From the UHGV virus genome UHGV-0174141: DNA of 50,880 nt, one strand, 5' to 3'. The position numbers are program-made. Positions 18,001-24,000 of this stretch are shown piece after piece (the first letter of the stretch is position 1; the number at the start of each line of letters is the position of its first letter). Origin of the DNA: a virus.

Positions 18001-21000
18001 CCCTTGCAGAAATGGACATTCTGCGTTTTTTCATGAGGGATAAGAGGGTTATTAACGCAGCTGGTGGAATTAACGCTCTTGAGGCCTGGCTTCTACGACA
18101 TGTCAGAGAGTGCCAGTACCCGCATTCCCACTATCACCACCATGAATTAGTGACTATGCGGCATCCGCCTGGCGCCATGGTTGTCTGCTGGCATTGTGAT
18201 AATGAATTACGTGAGCAGACCACCGAAATGTTGTCAGAGCTGGCTTATCAGAATCTGGTTCAGTGGGTGATTGAAAGGGTGTTGATCAGCCTTGGATACA
18301 ATAAGGAGCGCGAATTATCGATGGCGGAGCTCTGCTGGTGGGCTGTGAAATCCGGCATTGCTGACGCAATAACCGAGACGATGGCGCAACAGGCCTTAAG
18401 ACTGCCTGAGGAACCTTTCCTGTCCGTTTATAAGGATAGCGATATTGTCCCGTCATTTGCTGCAGGTGAAATCCTTCAGGATCTTGTCGAGGGCATAGAC
18501 CTGACGGACGCCAGTGTACTCATTGAGCAACCTCAGATTGAAAGTAAACCCATTCTGAGGCTTGGTGTCGATTCGAACAGCCCCGAATCATTTATGCGCC
18601 GCCCAAAGCGCCGGCGCTGGACCTGCGAAGTTTACACACGTTGGGTTAAAACTCAGCCATGTGAATGCTGTAGGCAACCATCAGACGATCCACACCATAT
18701 AATAGGGAATGGTCTGGGGGGAACTGGCACCAAGGCCCATGATCTCTTCGTGATACCACTGTGCAGAGTGCATCACGATGAATTACACGCCAATACATCA
18801 GAGTTCGAAAAGAAATATGGCACTCAGTTAGAGCTGTGGGCTCGTTTTCTGGACCGGGTAATGGGTATCGGTGTCATTGTAAAAGCTTGAGTGTATGGAG
18901 TACTGAGCATGAATATTGAATCAATTCCCAAATTTTTCGCGCCCAAAGGAATGCATATTTCCGATAGCGGTCGTGCAACCGCCAGCGAGCAACTCACTGT
19001 GACAGATGTAATGGCCGCACTGGGGATGACACAGGCAGAGGCAGGAATAGGCCTGTCAATGTTTTTGGGTAAAGCTGGAATCAGCGAACATGACAGAAAG
19101 GCATCCGTCAGTTGGTTGGCTGAATATGCAAAATCAAAAGCGCCTCGATCGATAAGAAAAGCAGCAGGGAAGAAGTTCCCGCTGTGTATGCTGATAATAG
19201 CTCGGTTCGCTTATAACGACTATGCCTCGTCTGCAGCTGACAGCGTAGATTGCAGGAAGTGTTCTGGTTCAGGCTTCATAAAAAAAACCTCAATGGTGGA
19301 AAAAAGCCACTACAAAATGAGATTACCGCAATGGGCAAAAGACCTCGGGCAGTCACCTTCGGATTTTGAAGTAAAACGTCAGGTGGAAGAGATTGACCAT
19401 GTTCTCTGCTTCAAATGCGGCGGCACCGGGAAAATCAGCAAGCGATGCCAGTGTGGCGGTACGGGAAAAACCCTGGACCGTAAAGAGTCAGAGCTGCAGG
19501 GAGTGCCTGTCTACAAAGTATGTAAACGTTGTGAAGGCCGCGGTTATAGTCGTCCTAAGTCTTCAAATGCTTACAGAGGTATGCTCTCTGAGCTGCCTGG
19601 TCTGCCAGAACGTACCTGGCGATACAGCTGGAAACCTTTCTATGAAAGTCTGGTTACAAAATGCTTTGAGGAAGAGAGTTATACCGACTCACAACTTAAA
19701 CGTGTGACAAAGGTGTCTGATTTGATAAATATCGCATAATTTAGCGACACGTTACTTGCAAAGTTGCCGCTTTTGTGTAATTTTATCTATAACGATGGGC
19801 TTTGTATGTTCAACGTTGATTAACCCGCCAGCGAGCGGGTTTTTTTATGGGCTAAAATCGATAAAATCTTCTTCTCTTTCAATTAGTTCTTGCTGGATAC
19901 CGTCACCAGAGTTATCTGTATGTCACACCACTTATTTGAGGTAAAAGACATGCTAAATCAGCAAGATATGACGGAAACAGCCAAGGCTGTTTTTGATGAG
20001 TTAAGTGACAAACCGGCTACGGCTGGGGAGATTGCTCAGAATACTCACCTGAGCCGCGAACGCTGCCAGCTCATACTTACGCAGCTGGTAATGGCGGGGT
20101 TATCTGATTATCAGTTCGGATGTTATAAGCGCCTCCAGTAATGGGGGCTTTTGCTGTGAAAATGGGCGGCTGGTGGGTGTTGTAGCACCCGACCAGCCAT
20201 CAGCTCATGCTTTCAGGTCACAAGCTAACCACGGCCCACTGCTTTAGCGCAAAAGCAAAGTGAGCCTATCAGAGTTACGCTTACTGATCTATGAAAAATA
20301 CTGTAAAAATATCCAGTATTGAATTAATCAATGCTGATTGCCTGCAATACCTCCCATCGCTACCCGATAACTCCATTGATCTTATTGTTACCGATCCGCC
20401 TTATTTTAAGGTGAAGCCAAACGGCTGGGATAACCAATGGAAGGGGGACGAGGACTATTTACGTTGGCTGGATAGCTGTCTGGCACAGTTCTGGCGAGTG
20501 TTAAAACCTGCCGGCAGCATGTATCTGTTCTGTGGGCACCGCCTGGCAGCGGATATTGAGCTGTTGGTGAGAGAGCGGTTTAACCTGCTCAACCATATCA
20601 TCTGGGCTAAGCCATCAGGGCGATGGAACGGCTGCAATAAGGAGAGCTTACGCGCTTATTTCCCGGCCACTGAGCGTATCATTTTTGCCGACCATTATCA
20701 GGGGCCATACAGGCCCAAAGACGATGGATATGCCGCAAAGTGTAATGAGTTAAAGCAACACGTCATGACGCCTTTAATTTCTTACTTCCGGGATGCCCGG
20801 GAATCTCTTGGCGTGACGTCGGCCCAGATTGCAGAAGCCACGGGTAAAAAAAATATGGTTTCCCACTGGTTTGGCCTTAGCCAGTGGCAACTGCCGAATG
20901 AAGCCGATTATTTGAAGTTGCAGGCTCTGTTTCAAAAAATTGCCATGGATAAGCACTCACGCAACGAACTGGGAAAACCTCACCACCAGCTTGTCGCTAC

Positions 21001-24000
21001 CTGGCAATCACTTAACCGGAAGTATTCTGAACTTCAGCAGGAGTATTACCGGTTACGGCGCCCATTTAGCGTGTCGGTCACGGTGCCATATACCGACGTC
21101 TGGACACATAAGCCGGTTCAGTTTTATCCAGGTAAGCACCCATGCGAAAAACCTGCCGATATGCTTCAGCAGATCATTACTGCAAGCAGCCGGCCAGGGG
21201 ATGTCGTAGCTGATTTCTTTGCTGGTTCTGGTTCCACACTAAAGCAAGCTGCTCTGCTCGGGCGGAGTGGAATCGGTGTTGAACTGGAAACCGAGCGGTT
21301 TGAACAGACGGTCAGTGAAATACGCAATTTGCTTGAGCACCTACCACCACAACCAAATCCCTTGCCTTAGAGCTAAACCGGGCGTCAGCCAACGGATAAA
21401 CGTATCCGGAAAATTGAGATCGCAGGAACGACCAACAAACGGTAATCCGTATGGAGAATAACCCGTTGAGGAAGAGGCCTGGCCGGAACCGTAACCGGCA
21501 CTTATATGGCTGCGGGGCCAGCGTCTGAAGCGAATCACGATCACGATGCGAAAACTACATGTCCCAGCTGCGCGCAAAGTGACTTAAGGCAGGGCCACAA
21601 TTTGAATCTGCGACAACTTAGGTTGGTCGCTCCGTATCAGTAAGCGGATCCACCTGGCTCGCATTCGCGGGCCTTTTTCGTATCTGCGCCACGCTCGGCG
21701 TTATTTAACCACAGAGCCTTTCAGGGGTGAGCCATAGGGAATAGTCAGTGTGACTGTCTCTGTGGGCTGATCATTCCTGAGCGCTGGCTCACCCGCTAAA
21801 AGGAAAGTCACTATGTTTGGTATTTTTAAAAAGAAAGCCCGTAAAGCCGTTGTTGAAGTGAAAAAAATGGAAAACCGCGATGCCGTAGAAGCCACCGTCT
21901 GGGGAGCGTACTCGATTGCATACGCCGATGGTACCTGCGATGCAAAAGAGATTGCAGTGCTGGAGAAGACTATTTCGGCCCTCCCGGCATTCGCGCCATT
22001 TGCTGGTGAAATTGCCCAGATGAGTTCGAATATTCGCGCCCGCTATGAAGCATCACCACGTTCAGCCAACGCTCAGGCGTTGCGCGAACTGGCTGACGTT
22101 GCCGGGACGGATGACGCTGTCGATGTTCTTTGCCTGTGTCTTGATGTAGCTGATAACGACGGCATCGGGGAAGAAGAAGAGAAACAGCTGAAGAAAATTG
22201 CCCAGGCTCTGCAACTTCCATTGGACCAGTACCTGTGATCGGTAAACTTCGCTGGGCCGCAGCTGGGGTGCTTTTGTTTCTGGTGGTTGCTATCGACTTC
22301 ACCAGCAAAATGATGTCAATCCTGGCTGATGGCGTGCTGGTAGCCGGGGTAATCGCTTTGCTCTGGCCCCATATTAAACCCAGTGATTAGCACTGTGCAA
22401 AAGGCATCGTAATGGTGCCTTTGACAGAGTGTCAGTTATTGACGCCGCCTATGACTACATCCTAAATTATGCGTGTGGTGAATCCCCCTATGCGGAGGGG
22501 CATTGCCAGTCTGATATGTTTTTTTGCGCATTGCGAGTCGTCTGTGGACTGGCGGCGACTTACCGGGAGGCACCCGGCACCACACCTAATAAAAAATGAT
22601 GATAGCTGTAAGGCCCACTTCGGTGGGCTTTTTCTTTGGGCAAAAAAAAAGCCCGCATGGTTTCATGCAGGCAAGGCAGTTACATTTAGATTTTGTCCCG
22701 GTATATGTTTTTTTGTCCGGAAGTCGAAAGATACTGTCTCGAATACATTTTGTAAATAACGGATTCAAATCACAAGGCCATGCATTTGCATGGCTTTTTT
22801 ATTTGTGCCACCAGAGCATCATTCACTCTGTGCTTTGTCGTTAATCCATCTGGCGGCCATCCTAAAGGACTATCTGCTGAGTTCTTTTTTCAGAGGTTGC
22901 ATTTTCTTCAGTACCTCATCTGAATTAGTGACTGAGAAACCCGTCGGGAAAAATAGCATTCCATCGGATGGATGTTCATCGTGCCAGTGCTTCGTGGTGG
23001 CCATCGTATGAGCGTCGAGATAACTGGTGTAAGCATCAAGGAGAGCGTTTTTCCTGCGCCTCGGGGCGTAAGGTAGCAACTGGTTGAAATCAGCATCGCT
23101 GATAAGCCTGAATGGATAAGAGCCTCCTTCAATAGCCTCAATTTCGCTTAGCAACTTTCCCCGCAGTGGTGCGGAATGCTTCCTGAACTCTGCCTTACGT
23201 GACGAATGGTTACTGATTAGTGACGGAATAAAGAGCCCTAGCAGTGTCAGTATCACTCCGATTACTGAAATAATTTCCATGAGATTTCCCTATGCCTGAT
23301 TTTATTTATTCAGTATTACCCGTGGTGGGATTCGGTTTTTCTTGTTTTGGTCTTGGATACATCCTTGGCTTCGTACGCGGACGAGACTGAACAAGAAGAA
23401 TAAATCCGTCTGAGAGGGTGGTGAACCCTGATATTTTTACAGTGATTTTTGGTGGCTGTCACCTGGCGGCCATCCTATTTTCCCCTCGTTCTGAGAGGAT
23501 CCACAGCAATAGAGGGGGCTAAATGTCCGATCCTGTTTCTGCCACAACGATAGCAGCTGGTGGACTGTTCGGCGCCAGCCTATTCGGCCTGGCAACTGGT
23601 ATTGATTACGGCGTGGTATTTGGCGCGTTTGCTGGTGCGGTGTTCTATGTCGCAACGGCGGTGAATATTAGCCGCATAAAGCTGGTGGGCTATTTCATCA
23701 CTTCATTCATATTCGGTGTGATTGGTGCTCCTCTGCTGGGGTCGTACTTCTCAAAGTGGACTGGTTACAACGACAGGCCGCTTGATGCACTCGGAGCGGT
23801 AATCGTGGCAGCCATAGCTATAAAGCTGCTGACTTTCGTAAACAGTCAGGACCTGGGTAGCCTGTTTGGGATTCTCTCTCGCTTACGTGGAGGAGGGACA
23901 AGCAATGGTAACAAGTGATCCGAGCGCAATCATTAATGCGGTGATATGCGCTGTAATTGTTGTTGTGCTGATGTTCTACCGGCGTGATGGGTCAAGACAC

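Follow-up and report, generated by a model that had tools for sequence, protein, structure and literature searches.

A conserved structured RNA may keep a toxic M.EcoGII-type methylase silent

Introduction

M.EcoGII and M.EcoGI are non-specific N6-adenine methyltransferases of E. coli O104:H4 prophages (PMC5778455), and M.EcoGII is silent in the lysogen and harmful under constitutive expression (Murray et al. 2018, PMC5778455). A gene of this type lies between the Q gene and the lysis genes of virus genome UHGV-0174141, of which a stretch of 50,880 nucleotides, hereafter the window, has been analysed. This locus raises the questions of what the enzyme is, what the 149-nt gap upstream of its gene holds and how the gene may be silenced. 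The enzyme family is already well known, and the gap is occupied by a strongly conserved structured element that has neither a prior annotation nor an Rfam family.

The methylase gene and its family

20291–21370, plus strand: intact ORF of 359 amino acids with an ATG start, predicted to encode a beta-class N6-adenine DNA methyltransferase of the M.EcoGII family

The initial annotation described this ORF as the third methyltransferase of the window and as a beta-class amino-methyltransferase with an N-terminal DPPY and a C-terminal FxGSGST motif, and both descriptions are borne out. The other two enzymes are a Dam-type enzyme (12577–13530) and a C5 enzyme (13523–15505). Direct reading places DPPY, the catalytic motif IV, at residues 35–38 (nt 20393–20404) and FAGSGST, the AdoMet-binding motif I, at residues 310–316 (nt 21218–21238), separated by about 270 residues in the motif order of the beta class. 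Pfam PF01555 N6_N4_Mtase matches residues 29–340 (E = 6.5e-41) with 141.1 bits, above the curated threshold of 26.7 bits, and the best PDB matches are solved beta-class methylases to which both halves of the protein can be aligned. Direct reading also reveals that the start codon has no Shine-Dalgarno sequence.

The protein is 77% identical to M.EcoGII across 349 residues, its full length, with two 1-residue gaps, a figure that includes a few reading errors because the M.EcoGII sequence was machine-read from a PDF. The two share prophage carriage, the order DPPY, recognition domain and FxGxG, and a neighbourhood of Q, small ORF, conserved element and methylase, as seen around the near-identical gene ECs_1780 in prophage Sp9 of E. 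coli O157 Sakai, whose product is 93% identical to M.EcoGII. The enzyme of the window differs in its length of 359 residues, in a short proline-rich C-terminal tail, in its host, which the closest phage, Kp4866-6 (97.8% amino acid identity), suggests to be of the Klebsiella type, and in that its activity is a predicted one. By sequence, 20291–21370 thus encodes an intact orthologue of M.EcoGII, an enzyme of enterobacterial prophages that acts on RNA as well as DNA, and is an ordinary prophage copy. Since the enzyme belongs to the M.EcoGII family and the gene order is known from elsewhere, the gene is a new member of an already known family, and since M.EcoGII is a non-specific adenine methylase, the initial assignment as N6A/N4C can be narrowed to N6-adenine.

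Non-specificity of the 77%-identical enzyme is extrapolated from M.EcoGII and from reconstructed ancestors. A sequence-specific orphan methylase would be compatible with the 23% of residues that differ from M.EcoGII, some of them inside the target-recognition region, and sequence cannot tell specificity. However, this region (residues 160–237) aligns to that of M.EcoGII with high identity and no gap, and the reconstructed ancestors that bracket the sequence are still non-specific in assays (PMC11551740). One of them, Anc291, which has been assayed in the laboratory as a non-specific DNA/RNA methylase (PMC5778455, PMC11551740), is 84% identical to the protein of the window. A sequence-specific enzyme is therefore improbable.

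Organization of the late operon

18891–19739, plus strand: Q antiterminator gene (Pfam PF03589 Antiterm, E = 3.9e-45)
19756–19799, plus strand: putative lambda-like late promoter PR', with –35 TTGCAA (19756–19761) and –10 TAATTT (19778–19783) at 16-nt spacing
19822–19848, plus strand: tR'-like intrinsic terminator, a 7-bp GC stem followed by T7 (terminator scan)
19950–20141, plus strand: small ORF of 63 amino acids with weak winged-helix similarity, all Pfam matches being under the family cut-offs
20131–20152, plus strand: P0, a second terminator-like hairpin followed by TTTT and overlapping the stop codon of the small ORF (terminator scan)
21656–21680, plus strand: intrinsic terminator 3' of the methylase gene (terminator scan)

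The methylase gene sits between Q and the holin and endolysin genes, which extend from 23523 onward. Directly after Q, the –35 and –10 hexamers are followed by the pause element AACGATGGG (19791–19799), a 9-mer that lambda PR' and SfV have in identical form and with identical spacing from the –10, and then by an intrinsic terminator at a site where SfV has an annotated terminator. These likenesses suggest that 19756–19848 acts as a PR'–tR' unit. The hairpin P0 is kept, with changed sequence, in loci with unrelated upstream DNA, and it is the counterpart of an annotated 'putative terminator' in N15 and phiKO2. Terminators are annotated after the methylase gene in SfV, N15 and phiKO2 as well.

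Comparison of translations identifies the small ORF as a homologue of SfV orf47 and Sakai ECs_1779; its similarity to N15 gp51 is weak (25% identity, E = 0.001). SfV has the order Q, terminator, small ORF, methylase, terminator and lysis genes; Stx2a phages and Sakai Sp9 share with SfV the order Q, small ORF, methylase and lysis or stx genes. The same module is located upstream of stx2 in an Stx2a phage and after Q in Sp9. The late operons of SfV, cdtI, mEp460, N15, phiKO2, the Stx2a phages and Sp9, like that of the window, have the methylase gene as their first large gene. In SfV (orf47–orf48), N15 (gp51–gp52) and phiKO2 (gp51–gp52), the methylase gene is flanked by terminators, followed by a holin gene and preceded by the conserved element. 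The annotated late promoter and terminator of N15 and phiKO2 are situated immediately 5' of the methylase gene, between the small ORF and the element, whereas PR' and tR' lie upstream of the small ORF in the window and SfV. The methylase gene is thus part of a recurrent module consisting of a small winged-helix ORF, a conserved 150-nt element and the methylase. The initial view of a cargo locus under late transcription is right as to the position between Q and the lysis genes behind PR' and tR', but the cargo is this recurrent module rather than an arbitrary gene.

A conserved structured element upstream of the methylase gene

The element is near-invariant in 45 Enterobacterales loci, also where the upstream gene differs. 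A covariance model of it, R1, finds it upstream of the methylase family in 70 loci ranging from Klebsiella to Vibrio and Gilliamella, among them N15, phiKO2, Yersinia P840, Vibrio MAR, Providencia and Gilliamella. In viral contigs, a methylase gene starts about 23 nt downstream of 70 of the 80 pattern matches, and the other 10 have no R1 match.

Compensatory changes are present at 31 of the 38 base pairs. Paired cells amount to 87% in the element and to at most 39% when the partners are slid as a control, and the covariation score is 0.311 as against at most 0.088 for the slid controls, a value reached by none of 500 shuffles; these figures come from an alignment that was fitted to the model and from related sequences, whose shared ancestry inflates the cell counts. 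Compensatory changes beyond controls are what is generally expected of a conserved structured RNA. A cmscan of 20128–20290 against Rfam 15, on both strands, gave no match at gathering thresholds or at E <= 10. The gap therefore holds a distinct, widely conserved and previously unannotated structured RNA element.

A candidate antisense sRNA

20159–20257, minus strand: candidate antisense sRNA of about 100 nt (covariation, strand tests and EcOnc49 at the homologous Sakai site)
20257–20240, minus strand: P3', 5' hairpin of the candidate sRNA
20239–20234 pairing with 20167–20162, minus strand: Pa, closing helix of a three-way junction
20228–20200, minus strand: P2' of the three-way junction
20198–20168, minus strand: P1' of the three-way junction
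20162–20159, minus strand: U-run ending the candidate sRNA
20263–20271, minus strand: putative extended –10 of the antisense RNA, TGATAGGCT, with conserved TGnTA(G/A)(G/A)CT
20259–20285, plus strand: P4, hairpin of the mRNA leader pairing GUGAGC with GCUUAC just before the methylase start codon, the weakest helix

Wobble asymmetry favours the minus strand: in the core helices Pa, P1, P2 and P3, A.C combinations outnumber G.U pairs by 189 to 42. The antisense core is the more stable one in 62 of 66 sequences; the mean difference is 5.9 kcal/mol. RNAalifold gives –42.7 kcal/mol for the antisense and –22.0 kcal/mol for the sense orientation of the same alignment; of the two folds, only the antisense one contains all four helices, P2 being lost in the sense orientation. 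The sequence of the window itself has a folding z of –4.0 antisense and –2.6 sense. The conserved structure thus fits the minus strand best and is probably made from it.

The motif TGnTA(G/A)(G/A)CT is present 22–25 nt before Pa in 58 of 68 distinct homologues; TG, TA and the last T show no or almost no variation, and n is free to vary. This pattern suggests an extended –10 promoter with a poor –35 (TAGATC) and a –10 (TAGGCT) that is weak except for its TG, an extension that N15-type elements lack. The U-run after the closing helix has 3–5 nt, which is few for Hfq binding or intrinsic termination, and Gilliamella has no such run. The candidate RNA would be complementary over its whole length to the methylase 5'UTR, at positions –132 to –34. 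It would not reach the start codon, and a simple block of the ribosome-binding site is therefore unavailable as its mechanism.

A published Hfq-CRAC peak, EcOnc49, lies on the antisense strand at a homologous locus in Sp9 of E. coli O157 Sakai. Tree et al. (2014, Table S2) list it, on the minus strand, with a flag for a nearby terminator; it was seen in three of five CRAC data sets and has been described as no more than a read peak. After conversion of its coordinates with an offset of +136, checked at three anchors, it maps to 1772900–1772944 of NC_002695.2, opposite the leader of ECs_1780, where the element scores 125 bits with R1. The interval starts at the predicted transcription start and spans P3' and P2'. 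The copy in the window differs in sequence and is placed and oriented with respect to the methylase gene as EcOnc49 is, and homology of the candidate sRNA to the Hfq-bound EcOnc49 is the best reading. Taken with the strand preference, these data lead us to favour, with some confidence, an antisense sRNA of about 100 nt opposite the 5'UTR of a toxic methylase, to which a regulatory role may be ascribed.

Alternative explanations of the element

If the element instead regulated the methylase mRNA in cis, as a sense-strand 5'UTR, the antisense RNA would be irrelevant; the leader could be riboswitch-like, bind a protein or attenuate translation by hiding or exposing the start region. The element always lies directly upstream of the methylase gene, the sense leader (20125–20310) folds better than shuffled sequences (z = –4.05), and a start codon with no Shine-Dalgarno sequence hints at initiation under unusual control. 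In P4, which adjoins the start codon and has 78% of its cells paired, G.U pairs outnumber A.C combinations by 58 to 19, and P4 therefore fits the sense strand. As P4 and some G.U pairs point this way, the structure of the mRNA leader may serve a function in its own right. However, the core helices fit the antisense strand clearly better, the TG-n-TA...T conservation and the U-run are explained on the minus strand only, the published Hfq-CRAC peak is antisense, and there is no match to a riboswitch family. A purely sense-strand function is thus rather unlikely.

It is far less likely that the inverted repeats are DNA operators for the small winged-helix protein or another late regulator, with the apparent covariation reflecting co-evolution of two half-sites. 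Palindromes can mimic base-pair covariation, and the small winged-helix-like ORF usually accompanies the element. However, the three hairpins have no half-site in common, and a long-range helix, TGGGC/GCCCA, whose arms are 65 nt apart, encloses two of them. Bulges are tolerated, non-complementary pairs are of the wobble type with a strand bias, and the element is equally conserved in the several loci where the small ORF is not found upstream of it.

The initial annotation regarded 20209–20261 as a possible degenerate relative of the structured leader of TerB (21700–21812) that has lost the arm containing the Shine-Dalgarno sequence, a kinship to which we give hardly any credence and which is rejected. 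CTTTCAGG and GTGAGCC do occur in both regions, and the two strings of the initial annotation are present, slightly displaced from the positions it gave (GCTTTCAGG at 20209–20217 and GTGAGCC at 20260–20266). However, GCTTTCAGG is part of a hairpin loop whose sequence is free to change between homologues, as CTTTCAGG lies in the variable P2 loop, the element forms a three-way junction and the TerB leader interleaved helices, and covariance models are at chance level in both directions. In the comparison that the initial annotation proposed, the TerB-leader model R2 gives 6.5 bits (E = 9.6) at 20241–20320, the last of 15 chance-level matches, as against 161.8 bits on the TerB leader itself, and R1 with filters off has no match at that leader.

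Proposed mechanism and comparison with known systems

The antisense sRNA reading leads to a plausible model. In the lysogen, PR' would be constitutive, and the antisense RNA, initiated at the extended –10 (20271–20263), folded into the 5' hairpin and three-way junction and ending in the U-run, may pair with the few read-through transcripts and silence them by duplex cleavage, translational block or transcriptional interference, to which P0 and the missing Shine-Dalgarno sequence would add. Q would be required for transcription from PR' to pass tR' and P0 and continue through the methylase gene into the lysis genes, and after induction Q-driven transcripts may outnumber the antisense RNA. The enzyme would then be made late in lytic growth and would broadly methylate progeny DNA before packaging, which may protect this DNA from restriction in the next host.

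We tentatively extend this model to an undescribed family of structured antisense sRNAs of about 100 nt, each with a 5' hairpin and a three-way junction. Its members would face the 5'UTR of every methylase gene of the M.EcoGII type, in loci ranging from phages of Vibrio and Gilliamella to prophages of Klebsiella and E. coli, and would occur in about half of complete E. coli genomes. Like antitoxins, they would silence the toxic, non-specific enzyme in lysogens until overwhelmed by late transcription under Q. If so, the logic of type I toxin–antitoxin systems would be applied to a DNA-modification enzyme. As in SymR/symE, Sok/hok and P22 sar versus ant, a small structured RNA would be transcribed across from the 5' leader of a gene whose mistimed expression does harm, with an antisense promoter presumed constitutive and a target in excess only on induction. 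The candidate RNA differs in its three-way junction and in not overlapping the start codon, its regulatory role is a proposed one, and its target is a DNA methylase rather than a membrane toxin or an antirepressor.

AgvB/AsxR, PasA–D and STnc100 are also Hfq-associated sRNAs encoded downstream of PR' in the late 'moron' region of lambdoid prophages. They have other sequences and sit after the cargo gene beside the holin gene, whereas the candidate precedes the methylase, and AgvB/AsxR are 51–60 nt long as against about 100 nt. The Rfam models RF02702 and RF02703, which stand for AgvB/AsxR with their conserved 3' domain, do not match the element, and the AgvB/AsxR sequences given in the supplement differ from it. 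A copy of STnc100 is present 2 kb downstream in the window.

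The methylase gene and its late-operon position

The methylase gene (20291-21370, plus strand) starts with ATG and encodes 359 residues; DPPY occupies residues 35-38 and FAGSGST residues 310-316, in agreement with the N- and C-terminal placement of these motifs in the initial annotation. Residues 29-340 match the Pfam N6_N4_Mtase model with E = 6.5e-41 and 141 bits (cut-off 26.7). Among proteins of solved structure the nearest belong to the beta class, among them M.RsrI, CcrM and M.MboIIA, and both halves of the window protein align with these enzymes. The gene is indeed the third methyltransferase gene of the window, as Dam-type and C5-cytosine enzymes are found upstream. 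M.EcoGII is a beta-class, prophage-borne enzyme that is common in enterobacterial phages, unexpressed in the lysogen and deleterious when expressed constitutively (Murray et al., PMC5778455). The window methylase is 77% identical to M.EcoGII across all 349 residues, with no gap in the recognition domain (160-237); the M.EcoGII sequence used was machine-read from the PDF of Supplementary Table S1 of the SUPREM paper (PMC11551740) and contains a few reading errors. Identity rises to 84% against Anc291, a reconstructed ancestor found by assay to methylate adenine in DNA and RNA non-specifically (PMC11551740). The nearest phage record is Klebsiella phage Kp4866-6 (97.8% amino acid identity), followed by the SfV, cdtI, mEp460 and Stx2 phages (77-80%) and by phiKO2, Yersinia P840, N15 and Vibrio MAR (50-59%). 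The window gene joins the characterised M.EcoGII family as a new member, and we hold with high confidence that it encodes an M.EcoGII-family enzyme of the late operon. By extension from its assayed relatives, the enzyme is presumably non-specific for sequence; a sequence-specific enzyme instead is improbable. The first codons of the gene (20291-20325, plus strand; ATGAAAAATACTGTAAAAAT...) are kept at synonymous positions too, and a small hairpin (ACUG...CAGU) is possible there immediately 3' of the start codon. The AUG of the Enterobacteriaceae variants has no Shine-Dalgarno sequence 5' of it.

Features of the methylase locus and its surroundings
12577-13530: Dam-type methyltransferase
13523-15505: C5-cytosine methyltransferase
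17835-18890: DUF968/HNH gene, upstream of Q
18891-19739: Q antiterminator gene (Pfam PF03589), upstream of the methylase
Directly 3' of Q: PR'-type promoter (TTGCAA, 16 nt, TAATTT, then AACGATGGG)
19822-19848, plus strand: intrinsic terminator, 3' of the PR'-type promoter
19950-20141, plus strand: small ORF of 63 residues with weak winged-helix similarity
20131-20152, plus strand: P0, a second terminator-like hairpin
Directly 5' of the methylase: gap of 149 nt
21656-21680, plus strand: intrinsic terminator, 3' of the methylase
21813-22238: TerB-like ORF, downstream of the methylase
23523-24186: two holins, downstream
24186-24815: GH19 endolysin, downstream

The assignment of the gene to the Q-to-lysis late locus is borne out by the position of PR' and its terminator and by the matching order in other phages. 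The annotated order of SfV (Q, terminator, orf47, orf48, terminator, S) is that of the window; the Sakai prophage Sp9 keeps the module order, as does an Stx2a phage, in which tRNAs and stx2AB follow 3' of the methylase; and N15 and phiKO2 have a 'putative late promoter' and a terminator immediately 5' of the methylase and a holin 3' of it. The methylase belongs to a recurrent conserved module and is not an arbitrary cargo gene. The 9-mer AACGATGGG matches, base for base, the initial transcribed sequence that induces pausing in lambda, and SfV has it at equal spacing from the -10 element. The late promoter region (19756-19848, plus strand) carries this exact lambda motif despite a Q of Pfam PF03589, and the short PR'-tR' transcript would measure only some 55 nt, a counterpart of lambda 6S RNA and StxS. 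A weak isrK/Trp-leader-like Rfam match at 19758-19848 is simply the PR'-tR' hairpin. Most phages with the methylase module also have the 63-residue ORF (SfV orf47, Sakai ECs_1779 and, weakly, N15 gp51), which lies 5' of the late promoter in N15 and phiKO2 but 3' of it in the window and may regulate the module.

A conserved structured element 5' of the methylase

Neither the kind of gene nor its position is new here; the experimental worth of the locus lies in the adjacent structured RNA, attached to a toxic and biotechnologically important methylase. Across 45 prophage loci of various Enterobacterales species, about 140 nt 5' of the start codon are more strongly conserved than the protein, also at loci without the small ORF and with unrelated DNA upstream. 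Searching viral contigs by protein alignment yielded near relatives only, whereas a DNA pattern excluding the common P1 start gave wider diversity: 80 matches, 70 of which have a methylase start about 23 nt downstream. Since the other 10 have no match to R1, the covariance model of the methylase leader, they are attributed to chance. With R1 the element is found in 70 loci, among them N15, phiKO2, P840, Vibrio MAR, Providencia and Gilliamella, always linked to the methylase gene.

Helices of the element (plus-strand notation)
20163-20167 (TGGGC) with 20234-20238 (GCCCA): Pa, long-range helix
20168-20198: P1 hairpin, enclosed by Pa
20200-20228: P2 hairpin, enclosed by Pa
20240-20257: P3 hairpin, outside Pa
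Adjoining the start codon: P4 hairpin, weaker

In the 70-sequence alignment, which was fitted to R1 and whose sequences share ancestry, 87% of the cells are paired, against at most 39% with the partners slid, compensatory changes occur in 31 of the 38 pairs, and the covariation score of 0.311 exceeds both the slid controls (0.088 or less) and all 500 shuffles. The same covariation trend is seen in a MAFFT alignment of close relatives only. In a plain MAFFT alignment including the distant members, misalignment of the variable hairpins left RNAalifold with the long-range helix and fragments alone, and that alignment was replaced by a model-guided one. Rfam gives nothing for 20128-20290 at gathering thresholds or at E <= 10. 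The leader and gene start are present in 2637 of 5426 complete E. coli genomes, in up to eight copies per genome, with no annotated ncRNA at the site in E. coli, and nothing relevant was found in the literature on a leader or antisense RNA of the methylase or on the N15/phiKO2 late region.

The structure fits the minus strand better

The non-Watson-Crick cells in Pa, P1, P2 and P3 comprise 189 A.C and 42 G.U; A.C cells become G.U pairs on the opposite strand, so this excess indicates a minus-strand fit. The paired share of P2 is 93% for the minus and 76% for the plus strand, a bias seen although the alignment derives from the plus-strand model. Of 66 distinct sequences, 62 have a core that folds more stably as the reverse complement; the mean difference is 5.9 kcal/mol, and the preference holds in every clade. 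With the model-guided alignment, RNAalifold finds all four helices de novo on the minus strand (-42.7 kcal/mol, covariance term -5.3), whereas P2 is lost on the plus strand of the identical alignment (-22.0, covariance term -2.9). The window's own core has z = -4.0 and a well-defined ensemble on the minus strand, against z = -2.6 on the plus strand.

On the minus strand, the near-invariant plus-strand motif GAGCCTATCA becomes TGATAGGCT, a putative promoter: TG is kept, the following base is free, and TA and the final T are kept, as is the pattern in an extended -10 element, and 58 of 68 distinct sequences carry the motif at a distance of 22-25 nt before Pa. The invariant A-run preceding Pa becomes a minus-strand U-run immediately 3' of the closing helix, and the -10-like motif and the U-run make sense on the minus strand only. 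Structure, -10-like motif and U-run together predict a minus-strand RNA of about 100 nt, from about 20257 to about 20159, which would begin with P3' (the minus-strand version of P3) and end past the three-way junction. An unannotated, widespread structured RNA, probably an antisense sRNA, borders the methylase.

P4 is the exception, having more G.U than A.C and so fitting the mRNA strand. A sense-strand cis-regulatory leader, perhaps alongside the antisense RNA, is possible but less likely; P4, the absence of a Shine-Dalgarno sequence and the strict linkage to the methylase gene all fit it. DNA palindromes serving as binding sites of the small protein are an improbable explanation, since there is a long-range helix, the wobble pairs are strand-biased, no half-site is held in common and the element is conserved where the small ORF is absent.

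An antisense Hfq-CRAC peak at the homologous Sakai locus

EcOnc49 is an Hfq-CRAC peak on the minus strand of E. coli O157 Sakai prophage Sp9 (1772764-1772808), found in three of five data sets; a terminator is predicted no more than 200 nt away (Tree et al. 2014, Table S2). These coordinates refer to an older Sakai sequence, with an offset to NC_002695.2 of about +136 as measured at AsxR (1.268 Mb), EcOnc03 (1.775 Mb) and AgvB1 (1.942 Mb), all three being sRNAs whose sequences are known; this offset places EcOnc49 at about 1772900-1772944 of NC_002695.2. The plus-strand order in Sp9 is Q (ECs_1778), the small ORF ECs_1779, the element (R1 match at 1772842-1772985, 125 bits) and the methylase ECs_1780, which is 93% identical to M.EcoGII. 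The antisense start predicted from the -10 motif lies at about 1772945 on the minus strand of NC_002695.2, and the EcOnc49 peak starts there and spans P3' and P2'. The homologous Sakai locus thus appears to yield an Hfq-bound antisense RNA where the comparative analysis places one, and such an RNA is probably made at the window locus too. No paper describing EcOnc49 further was found.

Other sRNAs were compared with the element. The minus-strand P1 loop CUACAACA resembles the GcvB target motif, yet identity with AgvB was rejected because AgvB is 51-60 nt long, differs in sequence and position, and its Rfam model does not match. The Pas sRNAs (2026 preprint) adjoin the holin, unrelated to the site of the element, and EcOnc22 of Sakai lies among tail genes. 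Sakai prophages Sp10, Sp12 and Sp4 have no M.EcoGII-type gene at the late position. A weak R1 match in the Sp4 locus (L347 4553-4670; NC_002695.2 1178552-1178669; 21.4 bits, E = 0.001) sits between the small ORF ECs_1086 and the AraC-family regulator gene ECs_1087, and could be what is left of the element, or a variant of it, at a site where another cargo gene replaced the methylase.

Possible role of the antisense RNA

Q-dependent late transcription would produce the methylase, which would methylate progeny DNA broadly. In the lysogen, a constitutive PR' and imperfect termination would give rise to read-through transcripts. The antisense RNA, presumed constitutive, would be complementary to -132 to -34 of the methylase 5'UTR and, jointly with P0 and the absent Shine-Dalgarno sequence, could silence these transcripts of a harmful enzyme through duplex cleavage, leader remodelling around P4 or transcriptional interference; upon induction it would be swamped. 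That the antisense RNA regulates the methylase is put forward tentatively, at somewhat less than even chances. The silencing logic resembles, by analogy only, that of type I toxin-antitoxin pairs and P22 sar/ant.

M.EcoGII is widely used as a chromatin and RNA footprinting tool, and we know of no explanation so far of how a prophage keeps it off. If the proposal is true, an antisense RNA opposite the leader would be a concrete and easily tested mechanism for the silence of M.EcoGII, a widespread RNA family unannotated in all those E. coli genomes would be newly catalogued, and an orphan Hfq-bound RNA of EHEC would gain a function. Some Stx2a phages have the module between PR' and stx2, so that convergent antisense transcription could affect toxin-gene read-through there. 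Phage particles of the window prophage would be expected to carry heavily m6A-modified DNA, which bears on restriction evasion and on the interpretation of methylomes.

The TerB leader and other features of the window

The initial annotation had proposed 20209-20261 as a possible degenerate relative of another structured leader, namely the 110 nt preceding the TerB-like ORF, which are the sole place in the window with CTTTCAGG and GTGAGCC together. The covariance-model comparison that it had itself suggested refutes this kinship. R2, the covariance model built from 21 homologous TerB leaders, scores 161.8 bits on the TerB leader itself, and a search of the whole window with filters off gave 6.5 bits at 20241-20320 (E = 9.6), the lowest of 15 chance-level matches. 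R1 finds only its own element in the window (169.9 bits) and nothing at 21700-21812. GCTTTCAGG is located in a hairpin loop, one that is freely variable among homologues, and local blastn found no second leader copy in the window.

The leader of the TerB-like ORF (21709-21812, plus strand) is conserved too, has no match in Rfam and apparently folds into a pseudoknot. One helix joins CCACAGAG (21709-21716) to CUCUGUGG (21758-21765), with the compensatory variants CCAUGGAG/CUCCAUGG and CCGCAGAG/..CUGCGG in the homologous leaders L110 and L096 of other phages, and this helix is interleaved with GGUGAGCC (21726-21733)/GGCUCACC (21786-21793). The Shine-Dalgarno region AAAGGAAAG is able to pair with CCUUUC at 21717-21722.

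A match to tRNA in Rfam at 7965-8090 (minus strand) reaches 40 bits against a threshold of 29 but is stretched over 126 nt, and ARAGORN reports none for the whole window; the match could stem from a tRNA-like sequence that is interrupted or degenerate, such as an attachment-site remnant. An STnc100 sRNA (RF02076, 99 bits) lies at 22444-22641 (plus strand), followed by convergent terminators on both strands at 22610-22672. This site corresponds to that of the 'convergent sRNA pair' downstream of the cargo gene in EHEC prophages (Tree et al. 2014), and STnc100 has been linked to the PasD sRNAs (2026 preprint). Between the sRNA region and the holin genes, an ORF of 136 residues (22870-23280, minus strand), with no Pfam match and with an N-terminal hydrophobic segment, is a cargo-like gene.
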